Below the pieces are notes generated by a model. The model was not told where the DNA came from, searched no databases, and saw nothing but the letters and a program-made list of their open reading frames with translations. The translations under genes and the position numbers were made by a program. A stretch of 64,000 nucleotides of DNA from contig DCWA01000011.1 in NCBI GenBank assembly GCA_002327445.1, positions 13,945-77,944 on the forward strand. Reading direction: 5' to 3'. Positions within the stretch are counted from its first letter, which is position 1. Each line of letters starts with the position of its first letter. Shown here one piece after another: positions 22,977 through 55,847 of the stretch. This stretch comes from Desulfobacteraceae bacterium UBA2174 (GTDB lineage: Bacteria > Desulfobacterota > Desulfobacteria > Desulfobacterales > UBA2174).

Positions 22977-22991
22977 TTTTTTTTTACCTGT

Positions 22992-29775: not shown

Positions 29776-29829
29776 AATTCTGTCTTCGTTTTGAACGGGT
29801 CACCATGCCGTAGAAGGGGATTTTGTATC

Positions 29830-32241: not shown

Positions 32242-32499
32242 TCAGGCCTCGATTTCTTTTTGAATCCGCAAAACGAAATCCCTCACCGTCCGGATTTCGG
32301 CTAGCTCGTTCAAGGTGAAGGAAATATCGTAGGCATCCTCCACTTCCTGAACAAGTTCCATCACCCGAAGGGAGTCCAGACCAAGATCGTTGACAATTTC
32401 CATTTCCTCCCGGATGCATTCCGGAACCTTGTCGAAGCGCTCGAGGATCGCCTTGACCGCTTCAAATATCTCCGCATAGTCTTTTTGGGGCACAGCCAT
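32242..32499 (-). CDS. Acyl carrier protein (dedicated, sphingolipid-type)
   Basis: 85 aa with the phosphopantetheine site LGLDSLRVMELV. 3-nt gap to spt. Confidence 0.9.
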   Translation of the reverse strand: MAVPQKDYAEIFEAVKAILERFDKVPECIREEMEIVNDLGLDSLRVMELVQEVEDAYDISFTLNELAEIRTVRDFVLRIQKEIEA

Positions 32500-33499: not shown

Positions 33500-33503
33500 G
33501 CCC

Positions 33504-37505: not shown

Positions 37506-38264
37506 TTATACCGCTCCGCGCATGGCGCCGGCCTGTCTTTCCGCGATGGCGCGCACCACTTTTGCGGCATGTTTCAGGTCCGCGGGGCAGTCGACCTCGC
37601 CCCAGAGCAGCCCTTCGATGCAGCAGGTCCAGACGGGCGTCTTCCGGGCCAGTTCGTCGATAACGGACAGATACCAGCGCTTGAGGGCGGCGGGATGACG
37701 CATGACATCTTCCACGGCTTGCCGGAACAGCTCCGGCCCCTCTCCGCGGAACAGCAGCATGCCGATGGACTCGGCGCGAACCTGGTCGAGGGGGAGGTCC
37801 TTGCCGATGCGTAGCAGGCGCGCGCCATCCAGAATGACCTTCATGTCATCGTCGTCATAGCGGTTTTTGCGATCGATGGTTACCGTTACCGGGCGCGGCT
37901 CGGAGGCAAGGAGGGTTTCCAGGACAGGGGCCTGAAAGAGGGTGTCGCCGTTCAGGAGGATGAAATCCTCCGTCATCTCGGACCGGGCGATCCAGCAGGT
38001 GCCCAGGTTGTCGGCCACGGAGTGGAAGGGATTGAAAAGGATGCGTACGCCGTCTTGTCCGTAGCGGTCCTTGAGCCGTTGCTCGACCTTGTCGGCCCCG
38101 TACCCGACCACGACGCAGATGTCTTCGACGCCGCACTTGATCAGTTCATCGATCTGCCATTCAACCATGGTCCGGCCATGAATGGGAACGATACACTTGG
38201 GCCGTTCAGCGGTATAGGGAAGCAGTCTCTTGCCCTGCCCTGCGCTGAGAATAATGGCTTTCAT
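37506..38264 (-). CDS. LicC-like phospho-alcohol cytidylyl/nucleotidyltransferase
   Basis: Track ORF 37506..38303, trimmed to ATG 38264 (GAGGAG RBS). MKAIILSAGQGKRLLPYTAERPKCIVPIHGRTMVEWQIDEL is a G-rich NTP loop. The C-terminal ...WYLSVIDELA...LWGEVDCPADL resembles LicC/IPCT-type enzymes. First gene of the minus-strand lipid operon. Confidence 0.7.
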   Translation of the reverse strand: MKAIILSAGQGKRLLPYTAERPKCIVPIHGRTMVEWQIDELIKCGVEDICVVVGYGADKVEQRLKDRYGQDGVRILFNPFHSVADNLGTCWIARSEMTEDFILLNGDTLFQAPVLETLLASEPRPVTVTIDRKNRYDDDDMKVILDGARLLRIGKDLPLDQVRAESIGMLLFRGEGPELFRQAVEDVMRHPAALKRWYLSVIDELARKTPVWTCCIEGLLWGEVDCPADLKHAAKVVRAIAERQAGAMRGAV

Positions 38265-38428: not shown

Positions 38429-39523
38429 GTGTTTGGAGCCGCTTTGATTCTGGAGCGCTATATCGTAGGGGAAATTATGGCCCGCCTGGTGGCGGTCTGC
38501 GCGGTTTTGATCATGATTTTCGCCGGCTACAGCGCCGTCCGCTTTCTTAACGATGCGGTCAACGGCCTGCTTTGCGGCGAAACGGTTGTCGTCCTGGTCG
38601 GGCTCAAGGTACTCATAGCCCTTGAAGTGCTTCTTCCGGTCACGCTTTATCTGGCGGTTGTCCTTGCCTTGAGCCGCCTGCATGCCGACAGCGAGATGAC
38701 GGCCTTGGAGGCATGCGGCGTGGGTCCGGGGCGAATCGTCATCTCGGTTTTTTCCCTGGCGCTTTTCCTAGGCCTCGTGGTTGCCACCCTTTCGCTCTTC
38801 GTCCGTCCCCGGGCTTATGAGAAAATCTATGCCCTGGAAGCCAAGGGGAAGAATGACTTCGACATCGCCAAGGTTGAGGCCGGGCGGTTCTACGAGTTGG
38901 GCGAGGAAGTGGTCTTTTTTGCCGAAAAGCTCGATCCGGCTGGTAACCGGGCCGGCAATGTGCGGGTATGGGAGTTGGAATCGGACAGGCGGAAAGTGAC
39001 AACGGCCCGCGACGCCCACCAGATCGATGGTCCGGGAGAGGGACAAAAGGCCATCGTTTTCCGGGATGGCTACCGCTATGTGCTGAATCGGAAGACGGGA
39101 GCCGACCTGATTACCCACTTCAGCAAAAGCGTATTTCGGCTCGATACCGACCGGACCCCTCCCGCCGAATATCGCCGCAAGGCCGCATCGACGCTGCATC
39201 TGGCCCGCTCACCGGCGCCGGAGGATATGGCGGAGTTCCAATGGCGGCTTTCTACGGGCATTTCCACCGTCCTGATGTCCCTGCTGGCGATCCCCCTGAG
39301 CCGGGTTGCCCCGCGGCGCGACAAATACGGCAAAGTGACCCTAGCCATCGTGTTGTTCTTCGCCTTTTACAATCTTAACTTGATAGCCAAGACCTGGGTC
39401 GAAAAACAGGTGGTCGGCGCCGTGCCCGGCATATGGTGGGTGACGGCCCTGCTCGGCGTTCTGGTTCTGATCATGCTTCCGGGACGCAATCCCTTTCGCC
39501 GTCTTTTGGGGCGCCGCCCCTGA
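38429..39523 (+). CDS. lptF: LptF-like permease (YjgP/YjgQ family)
   Basis: 364 aa. ...ILERYIVGEIMARLVAVCAVLIMIF...LEVLLPVTLYLAVVLALSRLHADSEMTALEACGVG... is followed by a periplasmic beta-jellyroll-sized insert and C-terminal TMs. The GTG 38429 start is uncertain; a TTG at 38444 gives the typical MILERY... N-terminus. Confidence 0.7.
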   Translation: MFGAALILERYIVGEIMARLVAVCAVLIMIFAGYSAVRFLNDAVNGLLCGETVVVLVGLKVLIALEVLLPVTLYLAVVLALSRLHADSEMTALEACGVGPGRIVISVFSLALFLGLVVATLSLFVRPRAYEKIYALEAKGKNDFDIAKVEAGRFYELGEEVVFFAEKLDPAGNRAGNVRVWELESDRRKVTTARDAHQIDGPGEGQKAIVFRDGYRYVLNRKTGADLITHFSKSVFRLDTDRTPPAEYRRKAASTLHLARSPAPEDMAEFQWRLSTGISTVLMSLLAIPLSRVAPRRDKYGKVTLAIVLFFAFYNLNLIAKTWVEKQVVGAVPGIWWVTALLGVLVLIMLPGRNPFRRLLGRRP

Positions 39524-39542
39524 TCGGTGGGGAGTTTTTGCC

Positions 39543-40607
39543 GTGAAAATTCTCGACCGTTATCTGGCAGCCGTTTTTTTGCGCACATGGCTCAATGTCA
39601 ATCTTGTCCTGGCCGGGCTGCTCAGCTTTCTTGAGCTGGCCGGCCAACTGGACGACGTCGGCAAGGGGAGCTACAGCTCGAGCGACGCCCTGCTGTACGT
39701 TGCTCTGACCCTGCCGGACCGCATGATGGATCTGGCTCCGCCGAGTGCTCTGCTCGGAAGCATCGTCGCCCTTGGGCTGTTGTCCAAAAACCTCGAACTG
39801 CTCGCCATGCGGGCCAGCGGAATCTCGATCCAACGTGTCGGGTGGGCTTTTGCGAAACCTGCGCTTCTTACCCTTCTTGCCCTCCTGCTTGGCGCCCAGT
39901 TCGTCATTCCGTCCCTGGAGCAGACGGCCTGGACCCTGCGTGAAACCGCGCTTTCGGAGGCGGGAACCATTCTGCCGCGAGGGGATTTCTGGACGAGAAG
40001 CGCAAGGCGCTTTATAAACCTGCGCACCAGCAGGGAACACGGGACTCAGGCGGCCGACATCTACGAGTTTGACGAGGAGAGGAGGCTGACGCGCTATATC
40101 CATGCTCGGGAGACAAAGATCGGCCCCGAGGGGGAATGGGTATTGCACGGAGTGCGGCAGAAGATGATCACGGACCGGGGAGTGGCGGTGCGCGAAATCC
40201 CCCAGCTTGCCCTTCCCGGCCTGCTCACCAGCAAGGAGGCGGCTCAACTGGCGCTGCCACCGCAGACCCTCTCTTTGACGGAACTGGCCAGGGTCATCGG
40301 CAATCGGCAGAAACGGGGAGAAAATCCGGGGCGCTACCGGCTGGCGCTCTGGCAGAAGCTGAGCCTTCCGGTGATGACCGGCGCGATGATCATGATATCG
40401 CTTCCGTTTGTGTGCCGCTCGACCCGCGGTTCCGGTCTCGGCTGGCTCATCATGGTCGGGGCCATTACCGGTGTGGCGTTCTTCTTTCTCAATCAGATTC
40501 TTGGCTATACCGGCCTGATCCTCCAGATATCGCCCGCCTGGACAACTCTCGTTCCTGCTCTGGCGGTTCTGGCCGGCGGGGTTTTCCTGACGCGAAGGAT
40601 CCCCTGA
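39543..40607 (+). CDS. lptG: LptG-like permease (YjgP/YjgQ family)
   Basis: 354 aa, GTG start. MKILDRYLAAVFLRTWLNV...LPDRMMDLAPPSALLGSIVALGLLSKNLELLAMRASGIS.... No lptB-type ATPase is adjacent. Confidence 0.7.
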   Translation: MKILDRYLAAVFLRTWLNVNLVLAGLLSFLELAGQLDDVGKGSYSSSDALLYVALTLPDRMMDLAPPSALLGSIVALGLLSKNLELLAMRASGISIQRVGWAFAKPALLTLLALLLGAQFVIPSLEQTAWTLRETALSEAGTILPRGDFWTRSARRFINLRTSREHGTQAADIYEFDEERRLTRYIHARETKIGPEGEWVLHGVRQKMITDRGVAVREIPQLALPGLLTSKEAAQLALPPQTLSLTELARVIGNRQKRGENPGRYRLALWQKLSLPVMTGAMIMISLPFVCRSTRGSGLGWLIMVGAITGVAFFFLNQILGYTGLILQISPAWTTLVPALAVLAGGVFLTRRIP

Positions 40608-40634: not shown

Positions 40635-41600
40635 TCAGGGATTGCGGGCAGGCAGGCGGATTTCCTTCTCCGCGCCGGCTATGAATGCGTGCTGCACTGG
40701 AGCATAGGCGCGAACGGCGAGACGCAGCCGCCAACCGTCTGCCGTGCGTTGAAAACGGCAAATGCGATAACGGGCCGTGCGCTTCGGGATGGGGCCGGCA
40801 TTGGATGCCGAGGGAACCCCGAGAACGGGGATAGGATGCCTCCCGGCGACGAGTTCATCCTCCTTGGAGACGTGGGCATGCCCGTGAAGAATCAGTTCCG
40901 CCCCTTGGCGGGCAACAACCTCGCCGAAAAGGCGGGCGTCGGTCAACCGCTTGCGCCAGGAGATACTGCCGGGAATCGGCGGATGGTGGATCAGGACAAT
41001 GCGCAGCAGGCCGAGCCGGCCGGTCCGCTCCAGCATTTCTTCGAAGCGCGCCAGTTGCCGGCGGCCAAGACTGCCCACGGCGACAAACGGCATGCTGGGG
41101 CGGGCGGATGAAAGACCGATCAATGCCACCGGACCTCGCACTCTCAAACTCGGATAAGCCCCGGCGCCGTCATCGTCTCCCGCCAGATAGGGGGCCCACC
41201 GGCTGAATGTGTCCTGCCATGAGGTGGCGACGTAGGCGTCGTGGTTGCCGGGGACCACCGTAACCTTTTCCGGCGGGCCAAGGCGCTTGAGCCACAGGGC
41301 TGCCTGACGGAACTCGTCCGGCAACCCCAGGTTGGTCAGATCTCCGGTTACGGCTACATGGTCCGGCGCCGCTTCGGCCAGGTCCAGCAGCAGCGCGTCA
41401 AGAACGTGCGGCGAGTGGATGTGGCGGCGGCGACACTGCCAGGAGAGATAGCCGAGCAGGCGTTTGTTGAGCAGCAAGGTGGGGCGTACCCCGGTCGGAG
41501 AAGAGAGATGCAGGTCCGATATATGGGCAAGAACAAACGTTTCTTTCTCCTTGTTCCCGGAAGTAGGGGCGGTTCGCGAACCGCCCCCTACGCGAAACAA
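40635..41600 (-). CDS. Calcineurin-like metallophosphoesterase; start codon unresolved
   Basis: Motifs are FVLAHISDLHL, AVTGDLTN, VPGNHD and ...LIHHPP...HGHAH. A strong AAGGAG (41552-41547) precedes the domain, but there is no ATG/GTG/TTG between it and HISDLH. The nearest in-frame start is TTG 41600, upstream of a palindromic hairpin. The track ORF extends to 41711. Confidence 0.7.
   Translation of the reverse strand: MFRVGGGSRTAPTSGNKEKETFVLAHISDLHLSSPTGVRPTLLLNKRLLGYLSWQCRRRHIHSPHVLDALLLDLAEAAPDHVAVTGDLTNLGLPDEFRQAALWLKRLGPPEKVTVVPGNHDAYVATSWQDTFSRWAPYLAGDDDGAGAYPSLRVRGPVALIGLSSARPSMPFVAVGSLGRRQLARFEEMLERTGRLGLLRIVLIHHPPIPGSISWRKRLTDARLFGEVVARQGAELILHGHAHVSKEDELVAGRHPIPVLGVPSASNAGPIPKRTARYRICRFQRTADGWRLRLAVRAYAPVQHAFIAGAEKEIRLPARNP
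41564..41590. repeat. GC-rich near-perfect palindrome (hairpin) in the 5' region of the phosphoesterase gene
   Basis: taggggcggttcg|cgaaccgccccc-ta has 12-13-bp arms and one extra C in the right arm. Confidence 0.8.
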
Positions 41601-42002
41601 CGGACACCCAATCGCAGGAAGGGTGAAGGATATTCTCAGACAGTGTCTTACGGCCGGACCAGGCGCCGAAACCCCTCCCCGCCTCGAGACTCCCCTTGCG
41701 AGAGGTACCAACCGCGGGTCCCGTCGTTTATCCGCGCCATGGAAGGAGTCTACCTATAACTATACCAGCTTGAGCCATAGATCAAGAGTCGCTTTGCTTT
41801 AAATTCGGTGCCATAATAGAAAAAAACCCGGCCTGCTTCGCCTTGACATATAAGGAACCTCTTGCTATGTCTTTCCTCAATAAACCGGGGTGACTCCACA
41901 GACTTTCCGGATTCCGGCGAAGGCCGGATCCAGAGGGGTTACCCATGGTTATTGAAATATTACCTCGCTGTGCTCTTGCATCAGCAAAACAGATAAAGAA
42001 AG

Positions 42003-43229
42003 ATGTCATCAAACATGGCCTTTAAACTGAATCATCTTGAGTACTACAGGCTTCCGTGGAATTACGCGGATAACGGCATTTCCTGGCTGGAGCCGACCAG
42101 TCTATGCAATCTGAGATGTAAGGGATGTTACAGAGACCCGAAAGGCCATAGGTCTCTGGAAGAGGTCCGTTCCGACTTGGCGGTCTTCCGAAAATTGAGG
42201 AAAAGCGACTGCATGAGTATCGCCGGAGGTGAGCCTCTCGTCTACCCTCATATTGTCGAAACGGTAAGAATGGTCAAGGAAATGGGTTGGAAGCCCATTG
42301 TGAACACGAATGGAGTTGCACTCACGGAATCTCTATTGAAGGACCTCAAGAAAGCGGGTGTCTTCGGTTTCACCTTCCATATCGATACGAGCCAGAATCG
42401 ACCCAATGTAAACGCGACAACAGAAACGGAGCTGAATGACCTGCGGTATCATTACACAAGCATGCTGGCCAGGGCCGGCGGGATCGCCTGTTCCTTCAAT
42501 GCCACGATATCGGAGAAGACCCTTGCGGAAATACCCAATATGGTGCGTTGGGCTCAAGAACACGCGAATATCGTCCATACCATGGTGTTTATTCTTTATC
42601 GATCCCCCAACCTGACAGGGGATTTCGATTTCTATGCACAAGGTCAAAAAGTCGATCCGGGCCTCATGTACCATGAAAGCGAGTGGGGAGGAGCGAAGCC
42701 GCTGATGGCGGAAGATGCCGTGGAGATGATTCGAAAAGCGGACCCTGCGTATGAACCTGCGGCCTACTTGAATGGGACCGCTAATCCGGATTCTCTCAAG
42801 TGGCTTTTGGCCAACCGAATCGTTTTCAATGGGAAGGTCATGGGGTACATGTCTCCCAAGCTCATGGAGTTGATCCAGACCTTTAACCATATCTTTACGG
42901 GCACTTACTTGTCTTACGCCACTCCCAAAAGCATGGCGCGAGGGAAACTTGCCTCGCTTTTCGGGCTTGTGGATCGAAAAATGAGGAAGGCCCTGGTCAA
43001 TGTAATGAGGGAGATCGTCTCCAAGCCGGCGACCATGTTCCGCCCGGCCCACCTTCAGAGCTTCATGATCATCCAACCCGTAAACTTCGAACCGGACGGA
43101 CGGCAGGACATGTGCGATGGTTGCCCGGATATCACCGTCCACGAGGGCAAGCTTGTCTGGAGTTGTCGGCTCGAAGAAATGAACCGGTTTGGTGCGTTTT
43201 TGCAAACCGTCCCCAAGAATAATCCATAA
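42003..43229 (+). CDS. Radical SAM protein (non-B12), HpnH/DUF3463-like C-terminal Cys motif
   Basis: 408 aa. WLEPTSLCNLRCKGCYR is the CxxxCxxC motif, and MSIAGGEPLVYPHIVE is SAM-binding. The C-terminus is ...DMCDGCPDITVHEGKLVWSC.... G+C is lower than its neighbours. Confidence 0.8.
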   Translation: MSSNMAFKLNHLEYYRLPWNYADNGISWLEPTSLCNLRCKGCYRDPKGHRSLEEVRSDLAVFRKLRKSDCMSIAGGEPLVYPHIVETVRMVKEMGWKPIVNTNGVALTESLLKDLKKAGVFGFTFHIDTSQNRPNVNATTETELNDLRYHYTSMLARAGGIACSFNATISEKTLAEIPNMVRWAQEHANIVHTMVFILYRSPNLTGDFDFYAQGQKVDPGLMYHESEWGGAKPLMAEDAVEMIRKADPAYEPAAYLNGTANPDSLKWLLANRIVFNGKVMGYMSPKLMELIQTFNHIFTGTYLSYATPKSMARGKLASLFGLVDRKMRKALVNVMREIVSKPATMFRPAHLQSFMIIQPVNFEPDGRQDMCDGCPDITVHEGKLVWSCRLEEMNRFGAFLQTVPKNNP

Positions 43230-43255
43230 AGCAGGACGACTTGGTCATGGAGCTT

Positions 43256-44323
43256 TCATAATCTGAAGAATTTTATTTGCCCTCCACTTCTGAGCGACAG
43301 CTCTCCACGCTGAGGGTCGGGAAGGTACAGTTGGCCGTCAAGTGTGAAGCCGCTTTGCATGAGAAGTCTAACGTCGCGGACGTTATGGCTTATGTACCCG
43401 TGGTCAGGGCTTCCCAGCCGACTCCTTCGACCCCTGATCAGGGATGGAATCGCCCGAAGGAGATGTTCTGCATCGGAGCGAACTACGGTAAGGTGCAAGG
43501 GGCCGGATTCGCTGCCCCAGTAGGGACGAATTCCCAGAAACAGACGCTCCAGAGTGGTGGCAAGGATGACCAGGGCATTTATGGGCCGCATCGGCATGCC
43601 GTCCAGGCTCATTCGAATGGCGGCCGGTGGGATGGTTCGTTTGTCATCGCCGACCGCGGCCAATAAGAACCGGCCCAAGGTAAGCCCTGCCGCCAGTTCA
43701 CCCCGCACGCCCGCCCGGTGTATCCGATTCAGGCAAAATTCGATCCCCTGATAAATCCCGCCGGCGCCGAAAAACATACCGTATAGGGGCTGAGCGCCGA
43801 CCGCCCCTTCTAAACGCAAGACGGGCCGTTCTACAATGGACGGCGCACCACGCCCGGAAGAGGACCACTCCAGAAGCCGAGACAAGGCCCGTAACCCTGA
43901 ACCCCTCAGCCCCACGTCTCTGGCAATCATGCTGGCCGTTCCCGCACGTAGGAGCGCCAACACCGGCAACCGATGTGGGCATCCGGTAGTAAACAGGGCG
44001 GTCAAGACCGCATGAATGGTCCCATCGCCCCCGTTCACCACCAGGAGATCCACCCCACGGCAAGCGAAATCTCGTACCGCCGCCGTCACTTGTTCGGGAT
44101 CAACGGCCTTTCGGTGCAAGACCCGGCGGTACCCGGAAAGGATCCGCTCTACAGGCTGCAACCCTTTTCGGTTCCCACCGCTCAATGGATTGCTGATGAC
44201 CCCGATACGGGGCCTCGTGGCGCCGGCAAGCCATTCGGGATCACCTGTGATCAAACACCCCGCATGGTTGAGCCTTCCGGTGTAAATCGTATCCTCCATA
44301 ATCCGATCACTCACGGGTTGCAT
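43256..44323 (-). CDS. DAGK-catalytic-domain lipid kinase (YegS / sphingosine-ceramide kinase family)
   Basis: 355 aa. RIGVISNPLSGGNRKG...DLLVVNGGDGTIHAVLTAL contains the GGDGT motif. ATG 44323 lies inside the first 83-bp tandem repeat unit, so the alternative ATG 44299 (MEDTIYTG...) may be the true start. Confidence 0.75.
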   Translation of the reverse strand: MQPVSDRIMEDTIYTGRLNHAGCLITGDPEWLAGATRPRIGVISNPLSGGNRKGLQPVERILSGYRRVLHRKAVDPEQVTAAVRDFACRGVDLLVVNGGDGTIHAVLTALFTTGCPHRLPVLALLRAGTASMIARDVGLRGSGLRALSRLLEWSSSGRGAPSIVERPVLRLEGAVGAQPLYGMFFGAGGIYQGIEFCLNRIHRAGVRGELAAGLTLGRFLLAAVGDDKRTIPPAAIRMSLDGMPMRPINALVILATTLERLFLGIRPYWGSESGPLHLTVVRSDAEHLLRAIPSLIRGRRSRLGSPDHGYISHNVRDVRLLMQSGFTLDGQLYLPDPQRGELSLRSGGQIKFFRL

Positions 44324-44487
44324 TTATGCCATTGGCTTGTTTTTAAAGATGAACGTCGAACATCGAACATTGAACGTTGAACATCGAATGAAAACTCGGG
44401 TTGCATCTATGCCATTGGGTTGTTTTTAAAGATGAACGTCGAACATCGAACATTGAACGTTCAACATCGAATGAAAAACCGGGTTGC
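44314..44487. repeat. 83-bp tandem repeat (2 units + 8-nt start of a third), each unit carrying five GAACRTY heptads
   Basis: The units at 44314-44396 and 44397-44479 differ at about 5 positions. Heptad arrays gaacgtc gaacatc gaacatt gaacgtt gaacatc lie at 44348-44390 and 44431-44473. Confidence 0.9.
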
Positions 44488-44492
44488 TTCTT

Positions 44493-44694
44493 GTTCCCAA
44501 GCTCCAGCTTGGGAACACAACTGTGCAGAAGCTCCAGCTTCGGTGACGCCGTTACCAAGCGAGAGTTTGGGAACGAGGGGAAAGACCACTTCGAGATCCT
44601 GGCGAGCTCCCTAGAAAGAAAGCGCGTTTCAGCTGTAGAAGGAGGGAAGCTGGAGCTTCCCGGGCAGGGCGTTCCCAAGCTGGAGCTTGGGAAC
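44493..44694. repeat. Segment with palindromic GTTCCCAAGCT(C/G)(C/G)AGCTTGGGAAC motifs and repeated TTGGGAACGAGGGGAAAG
   Basis: The palindromes are at 44493-44516 and 44671-44694. gggaagctggagcttccc is at about 44645-44662. TTGGGAACGAGGGGAAAG occurs at about 44566-44583 and 44686-44703. Confidence 0.85.
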
Positions 44695-44750
44695 GAGGGG
44701 AAAGTTTTAACCATCGCTGGGTCTCCCTAAGTTCCTTTTTCCCCATTCAC

Positions 44751-44813
44751 CATTCGATGTTCGATGTTCAATGTTCGATGTTCGATGTTCGATGTTCAAT
44801 GTTCAATGTTCAT
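44751..44813. repeat. Inverted array of eight RATGTTC heptads (reverse complement of the GAACATY arrays)
   Basis: The sequence is cattc gatgttc gatgttc aatgttc gatgttc gatgttc gatgttc aatgttc aatgttc at. Both ends (ATGAAC... / ...CATCGAATG) match the forward arrays. Confidence 0.9.
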
Positions 44814-45280
44814 TTTTCCAGTCGATACCGGGCAAAAACAACTTGGCGCTTATTGTGGCCAGCCCCGCGGAAGCAAAAGCGGGCGGCGCGAGGCCAAGTT
44901 GCGGGGGCGTACAGCGCCCACCCCAAACGGTGGTACTGCCACCGGACAACCGCAGGCGGGAATCCTCCAGGGCGATACCGCGACCAATGATACAGGCATC
45001 CGTTTTCAGTTTCAACTCGCCGCGGCTTCCGGCCAAATCCATCCGTATATCAATCTCCTCTGGCACTCCCAGCCGTTTTCCTTGCCGTCGGCCGAGCAAT
45101 TTGCTAACCTGTACCGCTAAATTTGGTTGATCGTGATTCCAGCTATCCTGGCATCGTGAAGTGGAAGAGGACCATCGCCGAATCATCGTAGGAGCGGCGC
45201 CCTCGCCGCGATGAACCAACTTTTTTTGTATCGGCTCCGATTGTGGCCGTCGATTCCAATATTTTTCCGAGAGCATAACA

Positions 45281-46480
45281 ATGACCGTCCATGCGTTGAT
45301 CCTTGCGGAGACCCCCATCCGGTTGTGGAGCCTTTCCAGCCGCCAGCGTCTCGAGCGTATCCTGAAAAGAATGAATATCACCAGTGTGATCGATGACCTC
45401 GCATCCGTCTCCAGTGAAGATTCGGTCCTGCTCCTGCGAGGCGATTACCTCTATGATGAGCGTGTCATCGGGAACCTGGTCCGGAAACCCGGAACCGTTC
45501 TCCGGACTGCCACGGAAGCGGGGAGCAGGCCCGTCGCCGCCCACGTGGCGGTGGCCGATGCTCTCCTGGTTCGCGATGTGCTGGAGGGGAAGCCCGGCAG
45601 CGCGTTGCCTCCGTCCCTTTCATTCGAGACCCCTCAGACCCTTGCGCCGACATACATGGAGCAGTTGCACAAGATCGACCCTCCCTATCTTCTGCCCATT
45701 GCCGATGGGAACAGGGAAACTCTGGAACGACGCCTGTTTTCCGGGTCGTACAAGGGCGTTACCGATCTGGTCACAAAATGGCTCTGGCCCGGGCCGGCGC
45801 GGGTGGTGACCCGCTTCTGCGCCGACAGAGGCATTACCCCCAATATGGTAACCTCCCTGAGCCTGGTTCTGGTCATCATCGCCGGTTTCCTCTTCTACCA
45901 TGGCCACTTCGCTCTCGGCCTGGCAGCCGCCTGGGCGATGACCTTCCTTGATACCGTCGACGGCAAGCTTGCGCGGGTCACCGTCAATTCCAGCCGTTTC
46001 GGGCACATTTTCGACCATGCCATCGATCTGATCTCGCCCCCCTTGTGGTACCTTGTCTGGGGTCTCGGATTGACAAGCTGGGATCCGGGAATGCCTCTTT
46101 CCCTGGTGGACGCCTTCTGGGCGATCTTCATCGGCTACATTGCCGGCCGCATGGTTGAAGTTATCTTCAAGAAATACCTGGAGCCTTCGGGGATTTTCTG
46201 CTGGCGGCCCATCGATTCCTATTTCCGCCTGATAACGGGGCGGCGCAACCCCAACCTGATCCTTCTCACCCTGGGGCTCATTGCCGGACGGCCAGACCCG
46301 GGGCTGGTGGCGGTTGCCTTGTGGACGGTCATTTCCAGCATGTTCCTGGTAGTGCGGCTGGCAACCGGTTTTGCCTTCCGGATCGCCAAGGGCCCTCTGA
46401 GGTCCTGGTTTCTTGACATCGACCCCGACGAAAAAAATCCGACTCTTGCCCAACGATGCTTTTCGAACAACCGCCTGTAA
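45281..46480 (+). CDS. CDP-alcohol phosphotransferase with a ~150-aa N-terminal extension
   Basis: 399 aa. It carries the complete family motif DTVDGKLARVTVNSSRFGHIFDHAIDLISP (D-x2-DG-x2-AR-x8-G-x3-D-x3-D) and multiple TMs. The N-terminal MTVHALILAETPIRLW...LLLRGDYLYDERVI looks like a decayed nucleotidyltransferase fold lacking the G-x-G-x-R loop. Confidence 0.85.
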   Translation: MTVHALILAETPIRLWSLSSRQRLERILKRMNITSVIDDLASVSSEDSVLLLRGDYLYDERVIGNLVRKPGTVLRTATEAGSRPVAAHVAVADALLVRDVLEGKPGSALPPSLSFETPQTLAPTYMEQLHKIDPPYLLPIADGNRETLERRLFSGSYKGVTDLVTKWLWPGPARVVTRFCADRGITPNMVTSLSLVLVIIAGFLFYHGHFALGLAAAWAMTFLDTVDGKLARVTVNSSRFGHIFDHAIDLISPPLWYLVWGLGLTSWDPGMPLSLVDAFWAIFIGYIAGRMVEVIFKKYLEPSGIFCWRPIDSYFRLITGRRNPNLILLTLGLIAGRPDPGLVAVALWTVISSMFLVVRLATGFAFRIAKGPLRSWFLDIDPDEKNPTLAQRCFSNNRL

Positions 46481-46618
46481 ACGGGGAAATCCACGGACAG
46501 CCAGGCCCCCCGGACCATGCCCGGTGCCATGACCATCGGCATGGTCACGAACCCCGGAGCTGAAGTAAGAGGTCGGCCCGGTTTCTGAGAATCTGAGCCG
46601 GCGAGGCCAAGGTTCCCC

Positions 46619-47566
46619 ATGAAGAACGACGCGAACGTAAAGAAAATCATTCAGCATTGGAACACGCGCGCGCTCCCGCCGGAGATCACTGCGTTGTCCG
46701 ATGCCGCCAGGCGACGGCACGACGGGGTGGCCGCCGTGCTTTTCTATGGCTCCTGCCTGCGTAGCGGCCGCGTGGATGAAGGGATGGCCGATCTTTACCT
46801 GTTGGTCGACGATTATAAGGTGGCGTTTCATTCGCGATTGCAGGCATGGATGAATCGCCTGCTGCCGCCGAACGTCTTTTACCTGGAGCTTCCCCATGGG
46901 GAGCGAACCCTGCGGGCCAAGTACGCCGTTCTGACCCTCGACGATTTTGCCAAAGGAACCGCCACGTGGTTTCATTCCTATATCTGGGGGCGTTTTGCCC
47001 AGCCTTCCGCCCTGGTTTACGCCCGCGACGCGGAAGCCTTCGGGCAGGTTCAGGATTCCTTGGCTCGTGCTCTTTATACCTTTGTGGATCGCGCCCTGCC
47101 CCAGGTTCCGGAAATCTTCACGCCCCGCGAACTTTGGGGTATCGGGCTGAGCCTGAGCTATCGCTGCGAGCTCCGGTCGGAAAAACCGGGCACCGCGGTT
47201 CGCCTCTATGACGCCGCTCCGGACTATTATGAAGCAGTTACCATTGAAGCTTTGAAAGCCCGGGGGCTTGCCGCGGAACCCGTTGCCGGCCGGGCCCCCG
47301 GCACTTATCGGACCTTGATTTCCCGGAGGGAAAAATATCTCAACCGTCTTGGCTGGCACCTGCGCAAGGTGCAGGGCAAGGTGCTCTCCGCCCTGAGACT
47401 CCTCAAAGCTCCCCTTACCTTCGACAACGGTCTGGATTACATCCTCTGGAAAATCGAGCGGCACTCCGGCATCCACGTTGAGCCCGGTCCCTCCTTGCGC
47501 CGTTTTCCCGCATCGGCGGTATGCGTCACTTTCTGGAGACTGTTCAGGAAAGGGGGGTTCCGGTAA
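46619..47566 (+). CDS. Tam41/Mmp37-like nucleotidyltransferase (mitochondrial-type CDP-diacylglycerol synthase family)
   Basis: 315 aa. By eye it parallels yeast Tam41 blocks. LFYGSCLRSG matches FGYGSGVFEQ, DLYLLVDD matches IDIILGV, LRAKYAVLTLDDFAKGTATWFHSYIWGRFAQPSALV matches VKYGVVSMETLLKDIATWNTFYLAGRLQKPVKIL, and LSLSYRCELRSE matches ALSYAGDIRYKL. Confidence 0.65.
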   Translation: MKNDANVKKIIQHWNTRALPPEITALSDAARRRHDGVAAVLFYGSCLRSGRVDEGMADLYLLVDDYKVAFHSRLQAWMNRLLPPNVFYLELPHGERTLRAKYAVLTLDDFAKGTATWFHSYIWGRFAQPSALVYARDAEAFGQVQDSLARALYTFVDRALPQVPEIFTPRELWGIGLSLSYRCELRSEKPGTAVRLYDAAPDYYEAVTIEALKARGLAAEPVAGRAPGTYRTLISRREKYLNRLGWHLRKVQGKVLSALRLLKAPLTFDNGLDYILWKIERHSGIHVEPGPSLRRFPASAVCVTFWRLFRKGGFR

Positions 47567-47582: not shown

Positions 47583-48775
47583 GCCATCGGATTCGAAAAG
47601 ACAAAGGCGAAAAATTTTGGTAATTACCGTGGACGGCCGGGTTGTTCCGGTTGCGGTCGCAAAAGGCCCGGTTATGACGTTTTGCCGCAGCGACGCTTCG
47701 AGTTTGTACCCTATGGGGCATCGCCGTGTTCTTTGTGTACGCCATGCGCCGGGTCAACTGCCCGGGTTGCGGGATAAAGGTTGAGCAAGTGCCCCGGGCA
47801 CAAGGCAAAAACCATCTGACCACCACCTACAGTTGGTTTTTGGCCAGGTGGGCCAGGCTTCTTTGCTGGAAGCAGGTGTCCGAAGTTTTCAATACCAGTT
47901 GGGACAACGTTTGGCGTTCGGTCAAAATGGCCGTGGCTTGGGGTCTTGAGCAGCGGGATTTTGAAACCGTTACGGCCATCGGCATCGACGAGATCTCCAG
48001 AAAGCGAGGCCATAAGTACGTGACGCTGGTCTACCAGATCGATGCGGGTTGTCGGCGGTTGCTGTGGGTTGGCAAGGAGCGCACGGCAAAAACCCTGCGA
48101 CAGTTTTTCACCGAGTTCGGCCCGCAGCGCACGGCCCGCCTTTGCTTTATCTGCAGCGACATGTGGAAGCCGTACCTGCGCATCATTGCTCAAGAAGCCG
48201 GCCATGCGCTCAATATCCTGGATCGCTTCCATATTATGACTCATGTGAACAAAGCGATTGACAAAATCCGCGCCAATGAGGCCAGAGCCCTGAAGGCTGA
48301 CGGACAAGAGCCGATCTTGACCGGCAGCCGCTGGTGCCTGCTCAAACGCCCCGAGAACCTGACAACCAATCAAACCGTAAAACTCAAGGAGCTGCTGGGT
48401 TTGAATCTGAAAACCGTCCGGGCCTACCTGCTCAAGGAAGACCTGCAACGTTTTTGGAACTACCAGACAGCCGGTTGGGCTGGCCGCTTTCTGGATCAAT
48501 GGTGCCAGCGGACCATGCGCTCGCGCTTGGAGCCGATGAAAAAGGTGGCCTTGATGCTTCGCTCCCATCGACCGCTTCTGCTCAACTGGTTCAAGGTCAG
48601 GGGGCGCCTCGCCCCGGGCGCAGTTGAGGGCTTTAACAACAAGGCGAAACTCACATCGAGAAAAGCCTACGGCTATCGTAGCTTCGATGTACTGAAAATC
48701 TCCTTATATCATACACTTGGTGATCTCCCAAAACCGAAGTTCACCCACAAATTCTGCTGACGAGCCTCAAGATGA
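47583..48775 (+). mobile_element. Degenerate ISL3-family insertion sequence (ends not confidently defined)
   Basis: The transposase coding signal starts at about 47583 (frame 3, ...RPGCSGCGRKRPGYDVLPQRRFEFVP) and runs to the stop at 48760. The right end ...cccacaaattctgctgacgagcc resembles ISL3 IRs that overlap the transposase C-terminus. Only a weak left-end match was seen (gcgaaaaattttggtaattaccgtgg, about 47606). Confidence 0.6.
47726..48760 (+). pseudogene. ISL3-family transposase, main frame (N-terminal zinc-ribbon part displaced to another frame)
   Basis: 344 aa. FFVYAMRRVNCPGCGIKVEQVP...IGIDEISRKRGHKYVTLVYQID...FICSDMWKPYLRII...LDRFHIMTHVNKAIDKIR...VEGFNNKAKLTSRKAYGYRS is the ISL3 DDE pattern. 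Upstream LWGIA continues in this frame, but RRFEFVP is in frame 3. The break is at the CCC run 47709-47711. Confidence 0.85.
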
Positions 48776-48952: not shown

Positions 48953-49995
48953 GTGTTGGTTCTTGGTGCGGCGGCAGTTCTGATTCTGTTTCTTTGGCGT
49001 CATTTCGCCGGTGACGAACTGGATGGGCGTATCGCCAGCGCCAACGGCCGGATTGAAGCGGTCGAGATCGATATCGCGGCCAAGACCGCGGGCCGGGTCA
49101 AGGAGATCCTGGTGGACGAAGGCGACTTCATCCGTGCCGGGCAGGTTCTGGCGCGAATGGACACGGCTGTGCTGGAGGCGCAACAAAGAGAGGCGGAGGC
49201 CCGCCTGCGACAGGCGGAGAACGCGGTGCAGACCGCCAACAGCTTGGTCGTGCAGCGCCAATGGGAGAAAAAAGCCGCGCAGGCGGTGGTTGAGCAACGC
49301 CTGGCCGAGGTCGAGGTGACCAGAAAACGGCTGGAGCGTTCCCAAGTGCTGGCGCCTCGCAATGCGGTTTCACAGCAGAAATTGGAAGACGACCGCGCCT
49401 CTTTTCTCAGCGCAAAGGCCATGCTCCGTGCCGCCGAGGTCGATGTAGCAAGGGCGGATGTGGCAATTGCCACGGCAAAATCCCGGGTGCAGGAGGCTCA
49501 ATCGGATGTCAGTGCCTACACGGCGATGCTTGAAAGAATCCAGGTGGAGCTTGACGACAACGTGTTGACCTCGCCGCGCGACGGCCGCGTCCAGTACCGC
49601 ACCGCCCGGCCCGGCGAGGTGCTCTCCCCCGGCGGCGTGGTGCTGAACATGGTCGATCTTTCCGATGTCTACATGACCTTCTTCCTGCCCACGGCACAGG
49701 CCGGGCGGGTCACGCTGGGCACCGAGGTCCGTCTGGTGCTGGATGCCGCCCCCCCCAATACGTGGTCCCGGCCGAAGTCTCCTTCGTCGCCGACGTGGCC
49801 CAGTTCACGCCCAAGACGGTGGAGACGGCCGAGGAGCGGCGGAAGCTGATGTTCCGCATCAAGGCGCGGATCGACCCGGGCCTGCTCAGGCAGCACCTCC
49901 ACCAGGTCAAGACCGGTCTGCCGGGCATGGCCCATGTGCGGCTCGACCCGCGGGTGGATTGGCCGCCTGAACTGCAAACGAGGCTGCCGCAATGA
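48953..49995 (+). pseudogene. HlyD-family membrane fusion protein (YhiI/YbhG-like) with a -1 frameshift at a C8 run
   Basis: Frame 2 (track ORF 48953..49849) reads ...GRIEAVEIDIAAKTAGRVKEILVDEGDFIRAGQVLARMD...coiled coil...[10 protein letters not shown]. The protein continues in frame 1 (track ORF 49762..49995) as [37 protein letters not shown].... The break is at CCCCCCCC 49749-49756. GTG start, with an in-frame TAG 12 nt upstream. Confidence 0.8.
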
Positions 49996-52787
49996 CCGGC
50001 GATCTGCATGCCGAGATCGAGAATGGCGGCGGCCCGGCGGCGGTTGCGCGCCTGCGGGATGTGTCCCTGCGCTATGGCAAGGTGCGCGCGCTCGAGGCCG
50101 TCGATCTGGATATCCCGGCCGGGTGCCTTGCGGGGCTGATCGGCCCGGATGGCGTCGGCAAGTCGAGCCTGCTGGCGCTGGTCGCCGGCGCCCGCAAAAT
50201 TCAAGAAGGGACGGTCGAAGTGCTCGGCGGCGACATGCGCAATGCCCGGTATCGCCGTGCGGCTTGTCCGTGCATCGCCTACATGCCGCAGGGGCTGGGC
50301 CGCAACCTCTACCCGACGCTTTCGGTCTTCGAGAACCTCGATTTTTTCGGCCGCCTGTTCGGCCACGACGGCGGCGAGCGGAGGCGGCGCATCGCGTCTC
50401 TGACCGAGGCCACGGGGCTGGCGCAATTCATCGACCGGCCCGCCGGCAAGCTCTCCGGCGGCATGAAACAGAAGCTCGGCCTGTGCTGCGCGCTGATCCA
50501 CGACCCGGACCTCTTGATCCTCGACGAGCCCACCACCGGCGTCGATCCCCTCTCGCGGCGGCAGTTCTGGGAGCTGATCGCCGGCATCCGCCGCACCCGG
50601 CCCGGCATGAGCGTGCTGGTGGCCACCGCCTACATGGAGGAGGCGGCGCGCTTCGACTGGCTGGCGGCGATGGACGGCGGGCGGGTGCTGGCCACGGACA
50701 CCCCGGAAGGGCTGAAACGGCAGACCGGCACCACCTCGCTGGATGCGGCCTTCATCGCCTTGTTGCCGGAGGAAAAGGGCCGGGCCCATCGCCCGGTGGA
50801 GATCCCGCCCCGCACGGCCGACGACGAGACCGTGATCGAGGCGCAGGATCTGACCATGCGCTTCGGCGATTTCACCGCCGTCGACCATGTCTCCTTCCGC
50901 CTCCGCCGCGGCGAGATCTTCGGCTTCGTCGGCTCCAACGGCTGCGGCAAGACGACGACCATGAAGATGCTCACCGGCCTGCTGTCGCCGAGTGAAGGCC
51001 GCGCCTGGCTGTTCGGCCAGGAAGTGGACCCGCACGACCTGGCGACGCGCCGCCGCGTCGGCTACATGTCGCAGTCCTTCTCACTGTATACCGAGCTGAC
51101 CGTGCGCCAGAACCTGGCGCTGCACGCCCGACTCTTTCAGGTGCCCGCCGCCGAGATTCCGGAACGGGTCGAGGAAATGATCGACCGTTTCGATCTCGCC
51201 GCGGTGATCGACACCCTGCCGGACAAGCTGCCCCTCGGCGTGCGCCAGCGCCTGTCGCTGGCCGTCGCCATGATCCACCAGCCGCAGATGCTGATCCTGG
51301 ACGAGCCCACCTCCGGCGTGGACCCCGTGGCGCGCGACGCCTTCTGGCGCATCCTGGGAGAGCTCTCCCGCCGTGACGGTGTCACCATCTTCCTCTCCAC
51401 CCACTTCATGAACGAGGCCGAGCGCTGTGACCGCCTCTCGCTGATGCACGCCGGCCGGGTGCTTGTCACCGGCGCGCCGGCCGATATCGTGCAAAAGCAG
51501 GGTGGAGAGAGCCTCGAAGAGGCCTTCATCCGCTACCTCGAGGACGCCGCCGGCGAAGGGGCCGCCGCACCGGACGGCGCTGATGATAGCCCGGTAACCG
51601 CCGGCATGGCGAGCGGGGGCGCGTGCGGCGACGATGGCGGGTCGGGTGGCGCACGCCGGTGGTTCGATCCCCGCCGCATGGCGAGCTACGCCCGTCTCGA
51701 AGCGCTGGAGCTGCGCCGCGACCCGATCCGCCTGATCCTGGCGCTGGTCGGCAGCGCCCTGCTGATGTTCGTGATGGGCTACGGCATCAGCCTCGATGTG
51801 GAGGATCTGACCTTCGCGGTCCTGGACCGCGACCAGACCACCGTCAGCCGCGACTACACGCTCAACATCGCCGGTTCCCGCTACTTCATCGAGCAGCCAC
51901 CGATCACCGATTATGAGGACATGGATCGGCGCATGCGCCGCGGCGAGCTTGGTCTTGCGATCGAAATCCCGCCGGGCTTCGCGCGCGACCTCGCCCGGGG
52001 CCGGCCGGTGGAGATCGGCGTCTGGATCGACGGCGCCATGCCGACGCGCGCGGAGACGATCCGCGGCTATGTGCAGGGCATGCACGCCCACTGGCTCGCG
52101 ACCCGGGCGCGGGAAGCCGGGCAGGCGCGCGCCTTGGCCGGGCTCGGCGACATAGAAACCCGCTTCCGCTACAACCCCGACCTCGAGAGCCTGGTCGCCA
52201 TGGTGCCGGCCGTCATCCCGCTGCTGCTCATGCTGATCCCGGCCATGCTGGCGACGCTCAGCGTGGTGCGGGAGAAGGAGCTGGGCTCGATCACCAACTT
52301 CTACGTCACGCCCACCACGCGGCTTGAGTTCCTGCTCGGCAAACAGTCGCCCTATGTAGTGCTGTCATTCCTGAGCTTCCTGCTGCTCACGCTGCTTGCG
52401 GTGACGATTTTCGGCGTGCCGCTGGAGGGCGATTTCCTGACCCTGGCGGCCGGCGCCCTGCTCTATGTCGGCGCCGCCACCGCGCTGGGGCTCTTGATCT
52501 CCACCTTCATGCGCAGCCAGATCGCGGCACTTTTCGGCACGGCGGTGCTCACCATCCTGCCGGCGGCGAACTTCTCCGGCATGATCGACCCGGTTTCCTC
52601 GCTGGAAGGGGCGGGCCGGCTGATCGGCGAGATCTATCCGACCACGCATTTCCTGACCATCGCCCGCGGCACCTTTTCGAAAGCGCTGCATTTCTCCGAT
52701 CTGCTGGCCGCCTTCGTCCCGCTGGCGCTGGCCGTGCCCGTCCTGATCGGGCTCGCCGCCGCGCTGCTGCGCAAGCAGGAGACCTGA
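49992..52787 (+). CDS. RbbA/YhiH-like fused ABC protein: two ATPase domains + ABC-2 permease domain
   Basis: 931 aa. NBD1 has [10 protein letters not shown] / [15 protein letters not shown] / [14 protein letters not shown]2 has [10 protein letters not shown] / [15 protein letters not shown] / [13 protein letters not shown]-terminal ABC-2-type TMD follows. ATGA overlap with the HlyD gene. Confidence 0.85.
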
Positions 52788-52791
52788 AGCC

Positions 52792-53913: not shown

Positions 53914-54029
53914 GCGTGCAGATGAGATGGGAACAAGTCCGCTGGACGAGGGCCGGGACATCTCCCCCAACATGCTGGATGCCCTGGAGCCTGACGGCCC
54001 CTGTTTCAGAACAAGCCCTCAAAAAATTG

Positions 54030-54058
54030 TTGACAGCTCTTACTTTCGCACATATCCA
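54030..54058 (+). promoter_or_regulatory. Candidate sigma70 promoter of the TetR-RND operon
   Basis: TTGACA (54030-54035), a 17-nt spacer, then TATCCA (54053-58). It is followed by the near-palindrome TGAGTGCTCA (54061-54070). Confidence 0.4.
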
Positions 54059-54098
54059 AGTGAGTGCTCAATCAAAAAAAACTAGGGGGACTTCATTG

Positions 54099-54704: not shown

Positions 54705-54727
54705 TAAAACGGTAAGAGGTATAACAA

Positions 54728-55840: not shown

Positions 55841-55847
55841 ACAGACG

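Follow-up and report, generated by a model that had tools for sequence, protein, structure and literature searches.

The stretch of DNA analysed here comprises 64,000 nucleotides of contig DCWA01000011.1 (assembly GCA_002327445.1, positions 13,945-77,944); we refer to this whole stretch as the window, and all positions follow its own numbering. It holds a gene island of approximately 20.6 kb (26968-47566), in which genes for ceramide synthesis lie beside genes for the predicted assembly of a sphingolipid head group. A first-pass annotation had singled out four of these genes, namely a lipid kinase, a cytidine diphosphate (CDP)-alcohol phosphotransferase, a protein resembling mitochondrial Tam41 and a calcineurin-like phosphoesterase, next to a ceramide operon. 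All four open reading frames (ORFs) are present where they had been placed, with their motifs intact as judged by an ORF check, Pfam and reading of the sequence, and the four identities agree with both Pfam and motifs; together they form only a part of the island. The neighbouring ceramide operon is likewise borne out by Pfam, with five genes between 31036 and 37403, all on the minus strand. These encode a serine palmitoyltransferase, Spt (31036-32238; Aminotran_1_2 E=3.1e-56), which is 55-67% identical to Spt in nine related loci; a dedicated, AcpR-like acyl carrier protein (ACP; 32242-32499; PP-binding E=3.3e-11); a CerR-type NAD-dependent reductase (32531-33787); an AasR-like acyl-ACP synthetase (33504-35270; AMP-binding E=2e-54), 56% identical to its Azotobacter vinelandii counterpart; and a GNAT-type bacterial ceramide synthase, bCerS (36201-37403), with a weak Acetyltransf_1 match and 57% identity to Avin_44290 (E=2e-132). 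The Epimerase domain of the CerR-type protein starts at residue 117 (E=1.1e-21) and its tblastn matches at residue 115; since the ORF overlaps the next gene, its true start probably lies some 100 codons downstream of the ORF start.

Among the head-group genes, the kinase (43256-44323, minus strand) matches DAGK_cat (E=1.7e-13), carries a GGDGT motif at residue 98 and is predicted to be a CpgB-type ceramide kinase. It is followed on the plus strand by a CpgA-type CDP-alcohol phosphotransferase (45281-46480; CDP-OH_P_transf, PF01066, E=2.8e-12) and a CpgC-type Tam41/Mmp37-like nucleotidyltransferase (46619-47566; Tam41_Mmp37 E=3.7e-6), the latter predicted to be soluble or peripheral. The phosphoesterase (40635-41711, minus strand; Metallophos E=3.8e-13) retains a complete set of metal motifs (DLH at residue 66, GD at 123, GNHD at 155, HH at 242 and GHAH at 277) and is 63% identical to its counterpart in the Pelobacter propionicus neighbourhood. 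Homology begins only at about residue 44, so the end coordinate of 41600 first given for this gene is plausible; its start codon is uncertain. The four Pfam families expected for these proteins (PF09139, PF01066, PF00781 and PF00149) are all matched, Tam41_Mmp37 just above its cutoff. Further upstream lie a CpgD-like cytidylyltransferase of LicC/IPCT-like type (37506-38264, with an ORF to 38303, minus strand; NTP_transferase/NTP_transf_3) and a MobA/CofC-like nucleoside triphosphate (NTP) transferase (35359-36225, minus strand; NTP_transf_3 E=1.4e-18). The MobA-like gene, an LptF/LptG pair (38429-40607), a radical SAM gene, a TagF-like gene and an ABC exporter, all lying between or beside the four genes, had escaped the first-pass annotation.

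Taken as a whole, the island is very probably an orthologue of the cpg cluster of Caulobacter crescentus, and its products would turn ceramide into an anionic sphingolipid of the phosphoglycerate type that is then exported to the outer membrane. The Caulobacter region (CC_1152-CC_1168, CCNA_01210-01226) comprises 17 genes that convert ceramide into ceramide phosphoglycerate (CPG) and ceramide diphosphoglycerate (CPG2), followed by export. In its published description (PMC11324152 S1 Text), CC_1161/CpgC carries a Tam41/Mmp37 InterPro domain, CC_1160/CpgB is a diacylglycerol (DAG)/sphingosine-type kinase, CC_1159/CpgA belongs to PF01066, CC_1158 is a calcineurin-like phosphoesterase, CC_1155 and CC_1156 are LptF/LptG paralogues, CC_1154 is bCerS, CC_1153 is a MobA/CofC-like transferase, CC_1152/CpgD is an NTP transferase, and CC_1167 is a CDP-glycerol glycerophosphotransferase-like protein carrying IPR007554. 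Each gene named there (CC_1152-1156, 1158-1161 and 1167) has a counterpart by family in the window, the phosphoesterase being equated with CC_1158 by family and position only. Thus Spt, AcpR, CerR, AasR and bCerS, the CpgB-type kinase, the Tam41-like CpgC, the PF01066 protein CpgA, the NTP transferase CpgD, the MobA-like protein, the phosphoesterase, LptF2/LptG2 and the TagF-like protein are common to both clusters, and the core order is alike. This agrees with the initial proposal of a route to a sphingolipid head group that sets out from ceramide-1-phosphate (C1P), draws on cytidine nucleotides and includes the phosphoesterase.

Orthologous clusters have been published from A. vinelandii, P. 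luteola and N. eutropha, and the link to Caulobacter was made through the A. vinelandii DJ orthologues Avin_44290-44370, themselves reached through a Pseudomonas plasmid homologue, together with published tables, which give Avin_44370 as CC_1161's orthologue (S2E table). The window and A. vinelandii proteins are 34-58% identical (E 2e-47 to 2e-132), and their genes stand in the same order. Apart from bCerS, the matches are CpgC with Avin_44370 (43%, E=4e-59), the kinase with Avin_44360 (37%, E=5e-50), CpgA with Avin_44350 (45%, E=5e-98), CpgD with Avin_44310 (58%, E=1e-83) and the MobA-like protein with Avin_44300 (48%, E=4e-74), while LptF2 and LptG2 are 36% and 34% identical to their A. vinelandii counterparts. 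The window cluster departs from that of Caulobacter in its relocated and inverted kinase gene, in an additional radical SAM gene, in an MsbA-like ABC exporter with a fused RMD1-3 domain that replaces the Wzx-type flippase CC_1166, and in the insertion sequence (IS) and repeat sequences at the island edges; counterparts of HIT (CC_1157) and LptC2 (CC_1168) were not found among the window genes scanned. In contrast to the Caulobacter cluster, the copy described here is Desulfuromonadales/Geobacter-like, with Geobacter sp. UBA5735 and Pelobacter propionicus as its nearest named relatives. The locus is a further copy of an already published cluster, in a lineage from which there was no earlier description of it.

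Tam41/Mmp37 is the CDP-diacylglycerol (CDP-DAG) synthase of mitochondria, with a homologue in Firmicutes (PDB 6ig2, 6ig4, 7ecd). The assignment of 46619-47566 to this family holds at the level of both sequence and predicted structure. The PF09139 match scores 26.9 bits, the curated cutoff being 24, and covers residues 74-187 only; most homologues of the protein carry a precomputed match to the same family, and a profile of 31 homologues matches Schizosaccharomyces pombe Tam41 (6ig2) with E=8.7e-8. When an AlphaFold model of the window protein (predicted local distance difference test, pLDDT, 89.8) was compared with the PDB by Foldseek, the five best matches were all Tam41 (6ig4, 6ig2, 7ecd; E 6e-11 to 6e-9; template modelling (TM) score 0.50-0.60) over about 276-294 columns, and the next fold family, ANT(4'), followed at an E value four orders of magnitude worse (E=3.5e-5, TM score ~0.3). 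The full-length match indicates that the modelled protein has the two-domain Tam41 fold, a nucleotidyltransferase domain plus a winged helix. Residues invariant in the family (Y43-G44-S45, D58, K101, R125, P129, Y181, R186 and E188) fall, in the profile alignment, on the S. pombe Tam41 elements YGS...D, KY, RF..P, SY and D-x-R...E. The active site has a single acid, D58, the second acidic residue being missing at position +2, and S. pombe Tam41 reads YGS...D-F-I at this place; Tam41 retains one of the three canonical acidic residues of nucleotidyltransferases (PMC11646218). No transmembrane segment is predicted, and the C-terminal tail is basic and aromatic, so that fold, YGS...D signature, lack of a membrane segment and basic tail are all common to the window protein and Tam41. 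On the other side, the window protein is only about 15-17% identical to the solved Tam41 structures, its context is sphingolipid and not cardiolipin or phosphatidylglycerol synthesis, and the substrate implied by Caulobacter genetics is C1P, not phosphatidate.

In Caulobacter, CC_1161/CpgC is genetically required for the conversion of C1P to CPG (Zik 2022, PMC9393093): upon deletion of cpgC, ceramide phosphate accumulates and both CPG and CPG2 are missing. Moreover, CpgC, with its Tam41/Mmp37 domain, has been explicitly proposed to make a ceramide in nucleoside diphosphate (NDP)-activated form (Olea-Ozuna 2024, PMC11324152). The first-pass annotation had regarded a tie between Tam41 and sphingolipids as new and CDP-ceramide as undescribed, and these two publications have overtaken it on both counts. 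From Tam41 homology and the conserved active-site signature, we infer that the window protein most plausibly moves cytidine monophosphate (CMP) from cytidine triphosphate (CTP) to C1P, giving CDP-ceramide.

The Tam41-like family comprises 1194 representative clusters (50% identity, E<=1e-3), and relatives are spread over at least 584 species-representative genomes. The genome scan used a 13-sequence alignment, and the loci compared are the 80 closest together with that of P. propionicus, with counts given over 82 loci; co-occurrence was counted up to 10 kb from the Tam41-like gene, in those 49 loci whose upstream sequence extends for 9 kb or more (well-covered loci hereafter). Across these loci the order bCerS-MobA-CpgD-LptF2-LptG2-phosphoesterase-CpgA-kinase-CpgC recurs, with the phosphoesterase on the minus strand. 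Within the Desulfobacterota, it is seen in Geobacter, Desulfuromonadales, Syntrophobacterales, Desulfobacterales and Desulfobulbales-like taxa, and it extends to many Gammaproteobacteria, Nitrospirales, a Myxococcota and a Calditrichota metagenome-assembled genome, and two Alphaproteobacteria. The kinase stands beside the Tam41-like gene in 75 of the 82 loci, mostly within a cpgA-kinase-cpgC operon; the phosphoesterase is found in 52, almost always divergent from that operon, LptG2 in 47, LptF2 in 45 and the MobA-like gene in 44. A ceramide-synthesis gene occurs within the counted distance in 44 of the 49 well-covered loci, in keeping with the expectation that Tam41-like genes co-localise with spt or bCerS, here across phyla. 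Twelve well-covered loci keep the kinase, Tam41-like, MobA-like and phosphoesterase genes without CpgA and CpgD, which suggests a core module and an add-on module; such loci may, judging from their gene content, make the first head group alone. These core-only loci (L043, L044, L052-L055, L059, L062, L072 and L077-L079) belong mostly to Gammaproteobacteria (e.g., Thiogranum), have bCerS and usually lack LptF2/G2 nearby.

The Tam41-like domain also occurs in natural fusions with a DAGK_cat kinase (P0183, 662 residues), with a CDP-alcohol phosphotransferase of PF01066 (P0223, 757 residues) and with a MobA-like NTP transferase (P0264, 594 residues). Furthermore, a complete spt-plus-cpg-type cluster resides on the 125-kb IncP plasmid pPNP1 of Pseudomonas sp. 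JS425 (L084, NZ_CP073662.1 62838-83683). Its genes encode Spt, ACP, CerR, an acyl-AMP ligase, a MobA-like transferase, LptF, LptG, the kinase, the Tam41-like protein, a metallophosphoesterase, a CDP-alcohol phosphotransferase and a cytidylyltransferase; the cluster is broken by an IS5 transposase and adjoins a class 1 integron integrase. A Tam41-like homologue was found on 16 further plasmids or chromids, 13 from Roseomonas and one each from Pseudomonas, Diaphorobacter and Qipengyuania. With regard to earlier reports, the papers searched contain no link between Geobacter and spt, Desulfobacterota figure as "potential sphingolipid producers" in metagenomic work only, and CC_1161 homologues in deltaproteobacteria are mentioned in passing (PMC11324152 S1 Text).

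The CDP-alcohol phosphotransferase carries the motif DTVDGKLARVTVNSSRFGHIFDHAID at residues 224-249, a complete D-x2-DG-x2-AR-x8-G-x3-D-x3-D. Its predicted layout is a cytosolic N-terminal domain of about 170 residues followed by a transmembrane catalytic domain, with hydrophobic segments at 184-216, 278-296 and 339-368; the extension is conserved, has no Pfam match and matches the N-domain of AF2299 weakly, at 6 bits. By profile search, the best solved relative of the protein is AF2299 (4o6m, E=3.1e-11); IPCT-DIPPS (4mnd) also matches, more weakly than phosphatidylinositol phosphate (PIP) synthases, and the nearest NCBIfam models are PIP and archaetidylinositol-phosphate synthases. The AF2299 family includes DIPPS, which takes a soluble CDP-alcohol as donor, and the donor of PIP synthases is the lipid CDP-DAG. 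Because the PIP-synthase matches score almost as well, the AF2299/DIPPS likeness is a weak pointer to a soluble donor. With AF2299 and IPCT-DIPPS the window protein has in common the complete motif, a predicted cytosolic extension ahead of the membrane domain and a cytidylyltransferase partner, fused or separate, as source of a soluble CDP-alcohol; it differs in its presumed acceptor, a lipid-bound glycerate and not inositol phosphate, in its presumed donor, CDP-glycerate, and in the weak likeness of the N-domain.

That partner would be the CpgD-like enzyme, predicted from sequence to make CDP-glycerate from CTP and phosphoglycerate. Its best PDB match is LicC (1jyk, E=2.7e-15), and its A. vinelandii orthologue is in turn 54% identical to the characterised Caulobacter CpgD (S2E table). 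The latter is a Mg-dependent CTP:phosphoglycerate cytidylyltransferase that yields CDP-glycerate, with crystal structures available, and its product is the proposed donor for CpgA. Residues R13, N86, T89, N105-G106, S166 and W197 of the window protein correspond, mapped by spacing and not by alignment, to R16, N90, T93, N110-G111, S170 and W201 of Caulobacter CpgD, in which N90, N110 and S170 contact the glycerate. Genetically the two behave alike: deletion of Caulobacter cpgA (PF01066) leaves CPG in place and abolishes CPG2 alone (PMC9393093), and deletion of cpgD has the same phenotype, with CPG kept and CPG2 missing. The two genes also co-vary. CpgA and CpgD are both present in 31 and both missing from 12 of the 49 well-covered loci, with 6 discordant cases (Fisher p=7.6e-7, not corrected for phylogeny). 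This supports a transferase that works with the CpgD-like enzyme rather than with the Tam41-like one.

In the window the kinase gene has left its usual slot between cpgA and cpgC and lies upstream, inverted. With the kinases of Pelobacter and Geobacter it shares no more than 43-46% identity, while the flanking genes reach 63-75%, and its closest relative among the loci compared is a Syntrophus kinase (61%), suggesting that the original gene was replaced by a copy from another lineage. Between the kinase and the transferase lies a repeat-rich non-coding spacer of 957 bp (44324-45280), recognised by self-BLAST and by reading of the sequence, with two copies of an 84-bp direct repeat, simple repeats of the CGAACAT type that recur inverted at about 44750-44810, and short palindromes of the GTTCCCAAGCTGGAGCTTGGGAAC type. 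Two ORFs in it (44343-44714 and 44764-45120) were rejected as genes, since they fall within the repeats, match no Pfam or NCBIfam model and have no homologue in the 82 loci.

On the other side of the kinase, between it and the phosphoesterase, stands an accessory radical SAM gene (42003-43229, plus strand; Radical_SAM E=1.8e-15) with a CxxxCxxC motif at residues 35/39/42, which is absent from the Caulobacter cluster. Among PDB entries it comes closest to GDGT-MAS/Tes, an archaeal synthase of tetraether lipids (7tol, E=4.8e-7), and the enzyme may modify sphingolipid tails. The gene recurs in only 3 of the 82 related loci (L003, L034 and L038), with 67-72% identity and in a different place in each cluster. 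The combination of the radical SAM gene with an inverted kinase is found in three independent assemblies (L086-L088) and is therefore not an assembly artefact.

Export would involve three further genes. An MsbA-like ABC exporter (ABC_membrane and ABC_tran) continues in frame into a C-terminal RMD1-3/TPR-like domain (26968-29400, minus strand); in P. propionicus (L001 11090-13560) the exporter and the RMD1-3-like part are two adjacent genes that immediately follow the gene for the Tam41-like protein. At least ten related loci share the ABC part at 47-71% identity, beside spt or cpg genes, and the exporter is a candidate inner-membrane flippase for the sphingolipid. LptF2 (38429-39523, plus strand; LptF_LptG E=5.8e-63), a predicted sphingolipid-specific permease, and LptG2 (39543-40607, plus strand; LptF_LptG E=1.2e-62) are paralogues of LptF and LptG; in Caulobacter, movement of the lipid depends on a complex of LptF2 and LptG2, which employs LptB (preprint 10.64898/2026.04.12.717747).

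Beside spt, a gene on the plus strand (29830-30987) encodes a highly conserved TagB/TagF-like protein of 385 residues, the counterpart of CC_1167 and a member of the CDP-glycerol glycerophosphotransferase family with a predicted GT-B fold. It is 100% identical to a public 385-residue protein (P0269), belongs to a family of more than 5000 database proteins and is conserved in six related loci. Homologues are named CDP-glycerol glycerophosphotransferase, some with PF04464, and the Syntrophus orthologue matches PF04464 with E=6.5e-4. A sequence-only PDB search gave nothing useful; with an AF2 model (pLDDT 80.6), Foldseek returned the GT-B fold with TagF (3l7m) at rank 4 (TM score 0.59), a comparison that cannot tell TagF from UDP-GlcNAc 2-epimerases. 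A longer ORF of 542 residues (29359-30987), with a weak HTH_21 match, was rejected as a transposase, as conservation begins only at about residue 158 and the real gene is that for the 385-residue protein. In wall teichoic acid synthesis, TagD makes CDP-glycerol and TagB/TagF transfer glycerol-phosphate. The island resembles that system in encoding a cytidylyltransferase together with a TagF-family GT-B protein, with the difference that the similarity of the window gene to PF04464 is weak. Published CpgD papers draw the same teichoic acid analogy, and CC_1167 is judged in the literature to be probably unrelated to CPG synthesis. Since CpgD makes CDP-glycerate, the TagF-like protein is a candidate second user of it. 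The radical SAM and TagF-like genes are proposed to be lineage-variable accessories. Putative glycosyltransferases of the ELM1/GtrOC1-like type (PF06258) lie a few genes from cpg in other loci (L001 13717-17131, L085 13507-15846 and L084 12554-14896) and so recur in Pelobacter, Azotobacter and the Pseudomonas plasmid, the latter two also with Asp/Asn beta-hydroxylase-like genes nearby; there is no PF06258 counterpart among the window ORFs scanned by Pfam, for which no dedicated search was run.

The right-hand edge of the island is marked by an ISL3-family transposase (47726-48760, plus strand; DDE_Tnp_ISL3 E=9.2e-75) directly after the Tam41-like gene. Beyond it, 48953-58994 is an efflux block (an HlyD-like adaptor, ABC-2 transporter genes, a second HlyD and an AcrB-type RND pump) unrelated to the cluster, as are the ABC permeases and PrpD of the first 22 kb of the window. 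The stretch 22377-25436 is low in GC (0.49-0.51 against about 0.6 around it) and holds a TetR regulator and a 795-residue protein in which a CmpB-like membrane domain is joined by B12-binding and radical SAM domains; the related loci contain no counterpart of either gene.

These observations fit a pathway in which Spt, AcpR, AasR, bCerS and CerR would build ceramide and the CpgB-type kinase would phosphorylate it to C1P, a reaction demonstrated biochemically for the Caulobacter orthologue. The Tam41-like protein would then act on C1P so that the first glycerate can be attached, as Caulobacter genetics indicates, and by analogy with Tam41 it would do so by transferring CMP from CTP to form CDP-ceramide. 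The CpgD-type enzyme would convert CTP and 2-phosphoglycerate into CDP-glycerate, as established biochemically and structurally for Caulobacter CpgD, and the CpgA-type transferase would use it to add the second phosphoglycerate to CPG, a step that combines genetics with inference. The MobA-like transferase and the metallophosphoesterase would aid CPG2 formation, on genetic grounds only: Caulobacter CC_1153 mutants accumulate CPG and have no CPG2, and a CC_1158 mutant has merely somewhat less CPG2 and more CPG. Finally, the ABC exporter would flip the lipid across the inner membrane, and LptF2/LptG2 would pass it to the Lpt bridge.

A wider and rather tentative proposal, which we hold to be possible yet short of even odds, joins these elements. 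In it, the CpgC-type Tam41 homologues of at least 584 species genomes, in Desulfobacterota, Nitrospirota, Gammaproteobacteria and other phyla, would be C1P cytidylyltransferases and CDP-ceramide a real liponucleotide; the kinase, Tam41-like protein, MobA-like protein and phosphoesterase would form an ancient core, to which CpgA, CpgD and LptF2G2 would add the second phosphoglycerate and export, and the Tes/GDGT-MAS-like radical SAM enzyme would modify the sphingolipid in this lineage. Only the proof and the modular picture would be new here, the idea of an NDP-ceramide being already in print.

Several points weigh against assigning the island to the cpg pathway and against its CDP-ceramide step. 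The A. vinelandii cluster has no phosphoesterase orthologue at E<=1e-5, and the Caulobacter comparison passes through A. vinelandii and published tables instead of the Caulobacter proteins themselves. The window kinase is displaced and unusually divergent. Co-occurrence counts are limited to 10 kb and treat related genomes as independent. As the cluster is known here from genes alone, the head group in this lineage could differ. The mechanism of CpgC is still termed "yet unidentified" in the 2025 CpgD paper, and since deletion of cpgA keeps CPG, a route through CDP-ceramide needs a transferase beyond those found by genetics.

The last point bears on a linear scheme, put forward in the first-pass annotation, in which the kinase makes C1P, the Tam41-like protein makes CDP-ceramide, the neighbouring transferase takes CDP-ceramide as donor for a head-group alcohol and the phosphoesterase trims a terminal phosphate. 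It draws on the single cpgA-kinase-cpgC operon of most loci, on the natural CpgA-CpgC fusion (P0223), on a chemistry that parallels the logic of CDP-DAG, PgsA/PIPS and a phosphatase, and on the nearest NCBIfam models of the transferase, PIP and archaetidylinositol-phosphate synthases that use a phosphorylated acceptor with a later phosphatase. We nevertheless regard it as unlikely. CDP-ceramide as donor for this transferase conflicts with the Caulobacter cpgA mutant, in which CPG is still made; the cpgD mutant behaves alike, and CpgD makes CDP-glycerate; and the transferase co-varies with CpgD and not with the Tam41-like gene, the 12 loci without both retaining the kinase, Tam41-like, MobA-like and phosphoesterase genes. 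The soluble CDP-alcohol donors of the AF2299 family, with DIPPS, also point away from it, with little weight given the nearly equal scores of PIP synthases. The first half of the scheme, from kinase through C1P to the Tam41-like protein, fits the genetics, and the donor role of CDP-ceramide in the transferase step does not. A Kennedy-like reading had been offered as its competitor, with a LicC-like enzyme making a CDP-alcohol that the transferase places on ceramide; this corresponds to CpgD and CpgA, with CPG in place of ceramide as acceptor. The two readings are two halves of one published pathway.

In an alternative scenario, the same architecture would serve another head group in this lineage, such as inositol-phosphate, glycerol-phosphate or a different alcohol activated with CDP. 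In its favour, the CpgD-like enzyme has likenesses to inositol-1-phosphate cytidylyltransferases as well as to LicC, and the transferase to PIP synthase and DIPPS. The island further holds an additional radical SAM gene, along with a TagF-like gene from a family with CDP-glycerol or CDP-ribitol as donors, and the window cluster is known from its genes alone. Against this, the CpgD-like protein is 58% identical to an A. vinelandii orthologue that is itself 54% identical to Caulobacter CpgD, it has candidates for the glycerate contacts N90, N110 and S170 at matching spacing, and no inositol-phosphate synthase or glycerol-phosphate gene is present among the island genes scanned by Pfam. A different head group thus seems doubtful, with only a small chance of being correct. 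That the genes serve ordinary glycerophospholipid synthesis and lie beside ceramide genes by chance, as CDP-DAG synthase, PgsA/PIPS-type enzyme and DAG kinase, is highly improbable: although a Firmicute Tam41 produces CDP-DAG and Caulobacter CpgB phosphorylates DAG in vitro as well (PMC11324152 S1 Text), the linkage to bCerS, spt, cerR and aasR is kept across several phyla, Caulobacter mutants specifically lose sphingolipid species, and the gene set travels together, even with spt on a Pseudomonas IncP plasmid.

The cpg pathway of Caulobacter has been described in papers from 2022-2026, with the Klein, Geiger and Airola laboratories active since 2022, and the window opens no new pathway; its value is comparative. 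CDP-ceramide, if true, would be a new liponucleotide, a hypothesis already published, and the chemistry of CpgC is already being pursued in Caulobacter. To this the present survey adds constraints on the step from C1P to CPG, in the form of the kinase-CpgC, CpgA-CpgC and MobA-CpgC fusions, the co-variation of CpgA and CpgD, and the core-only loci. It further indicates that cpg-type systems for anionic sphingolipids, described from alpha-, beta- and gammaproteobacteria, are spread well beyond these groups, occurring also in Desulfobacterota that live anaerobically and cycle metals and sulfur, and in Nitrospirota and further phyla, and that a plasmid can carry them.

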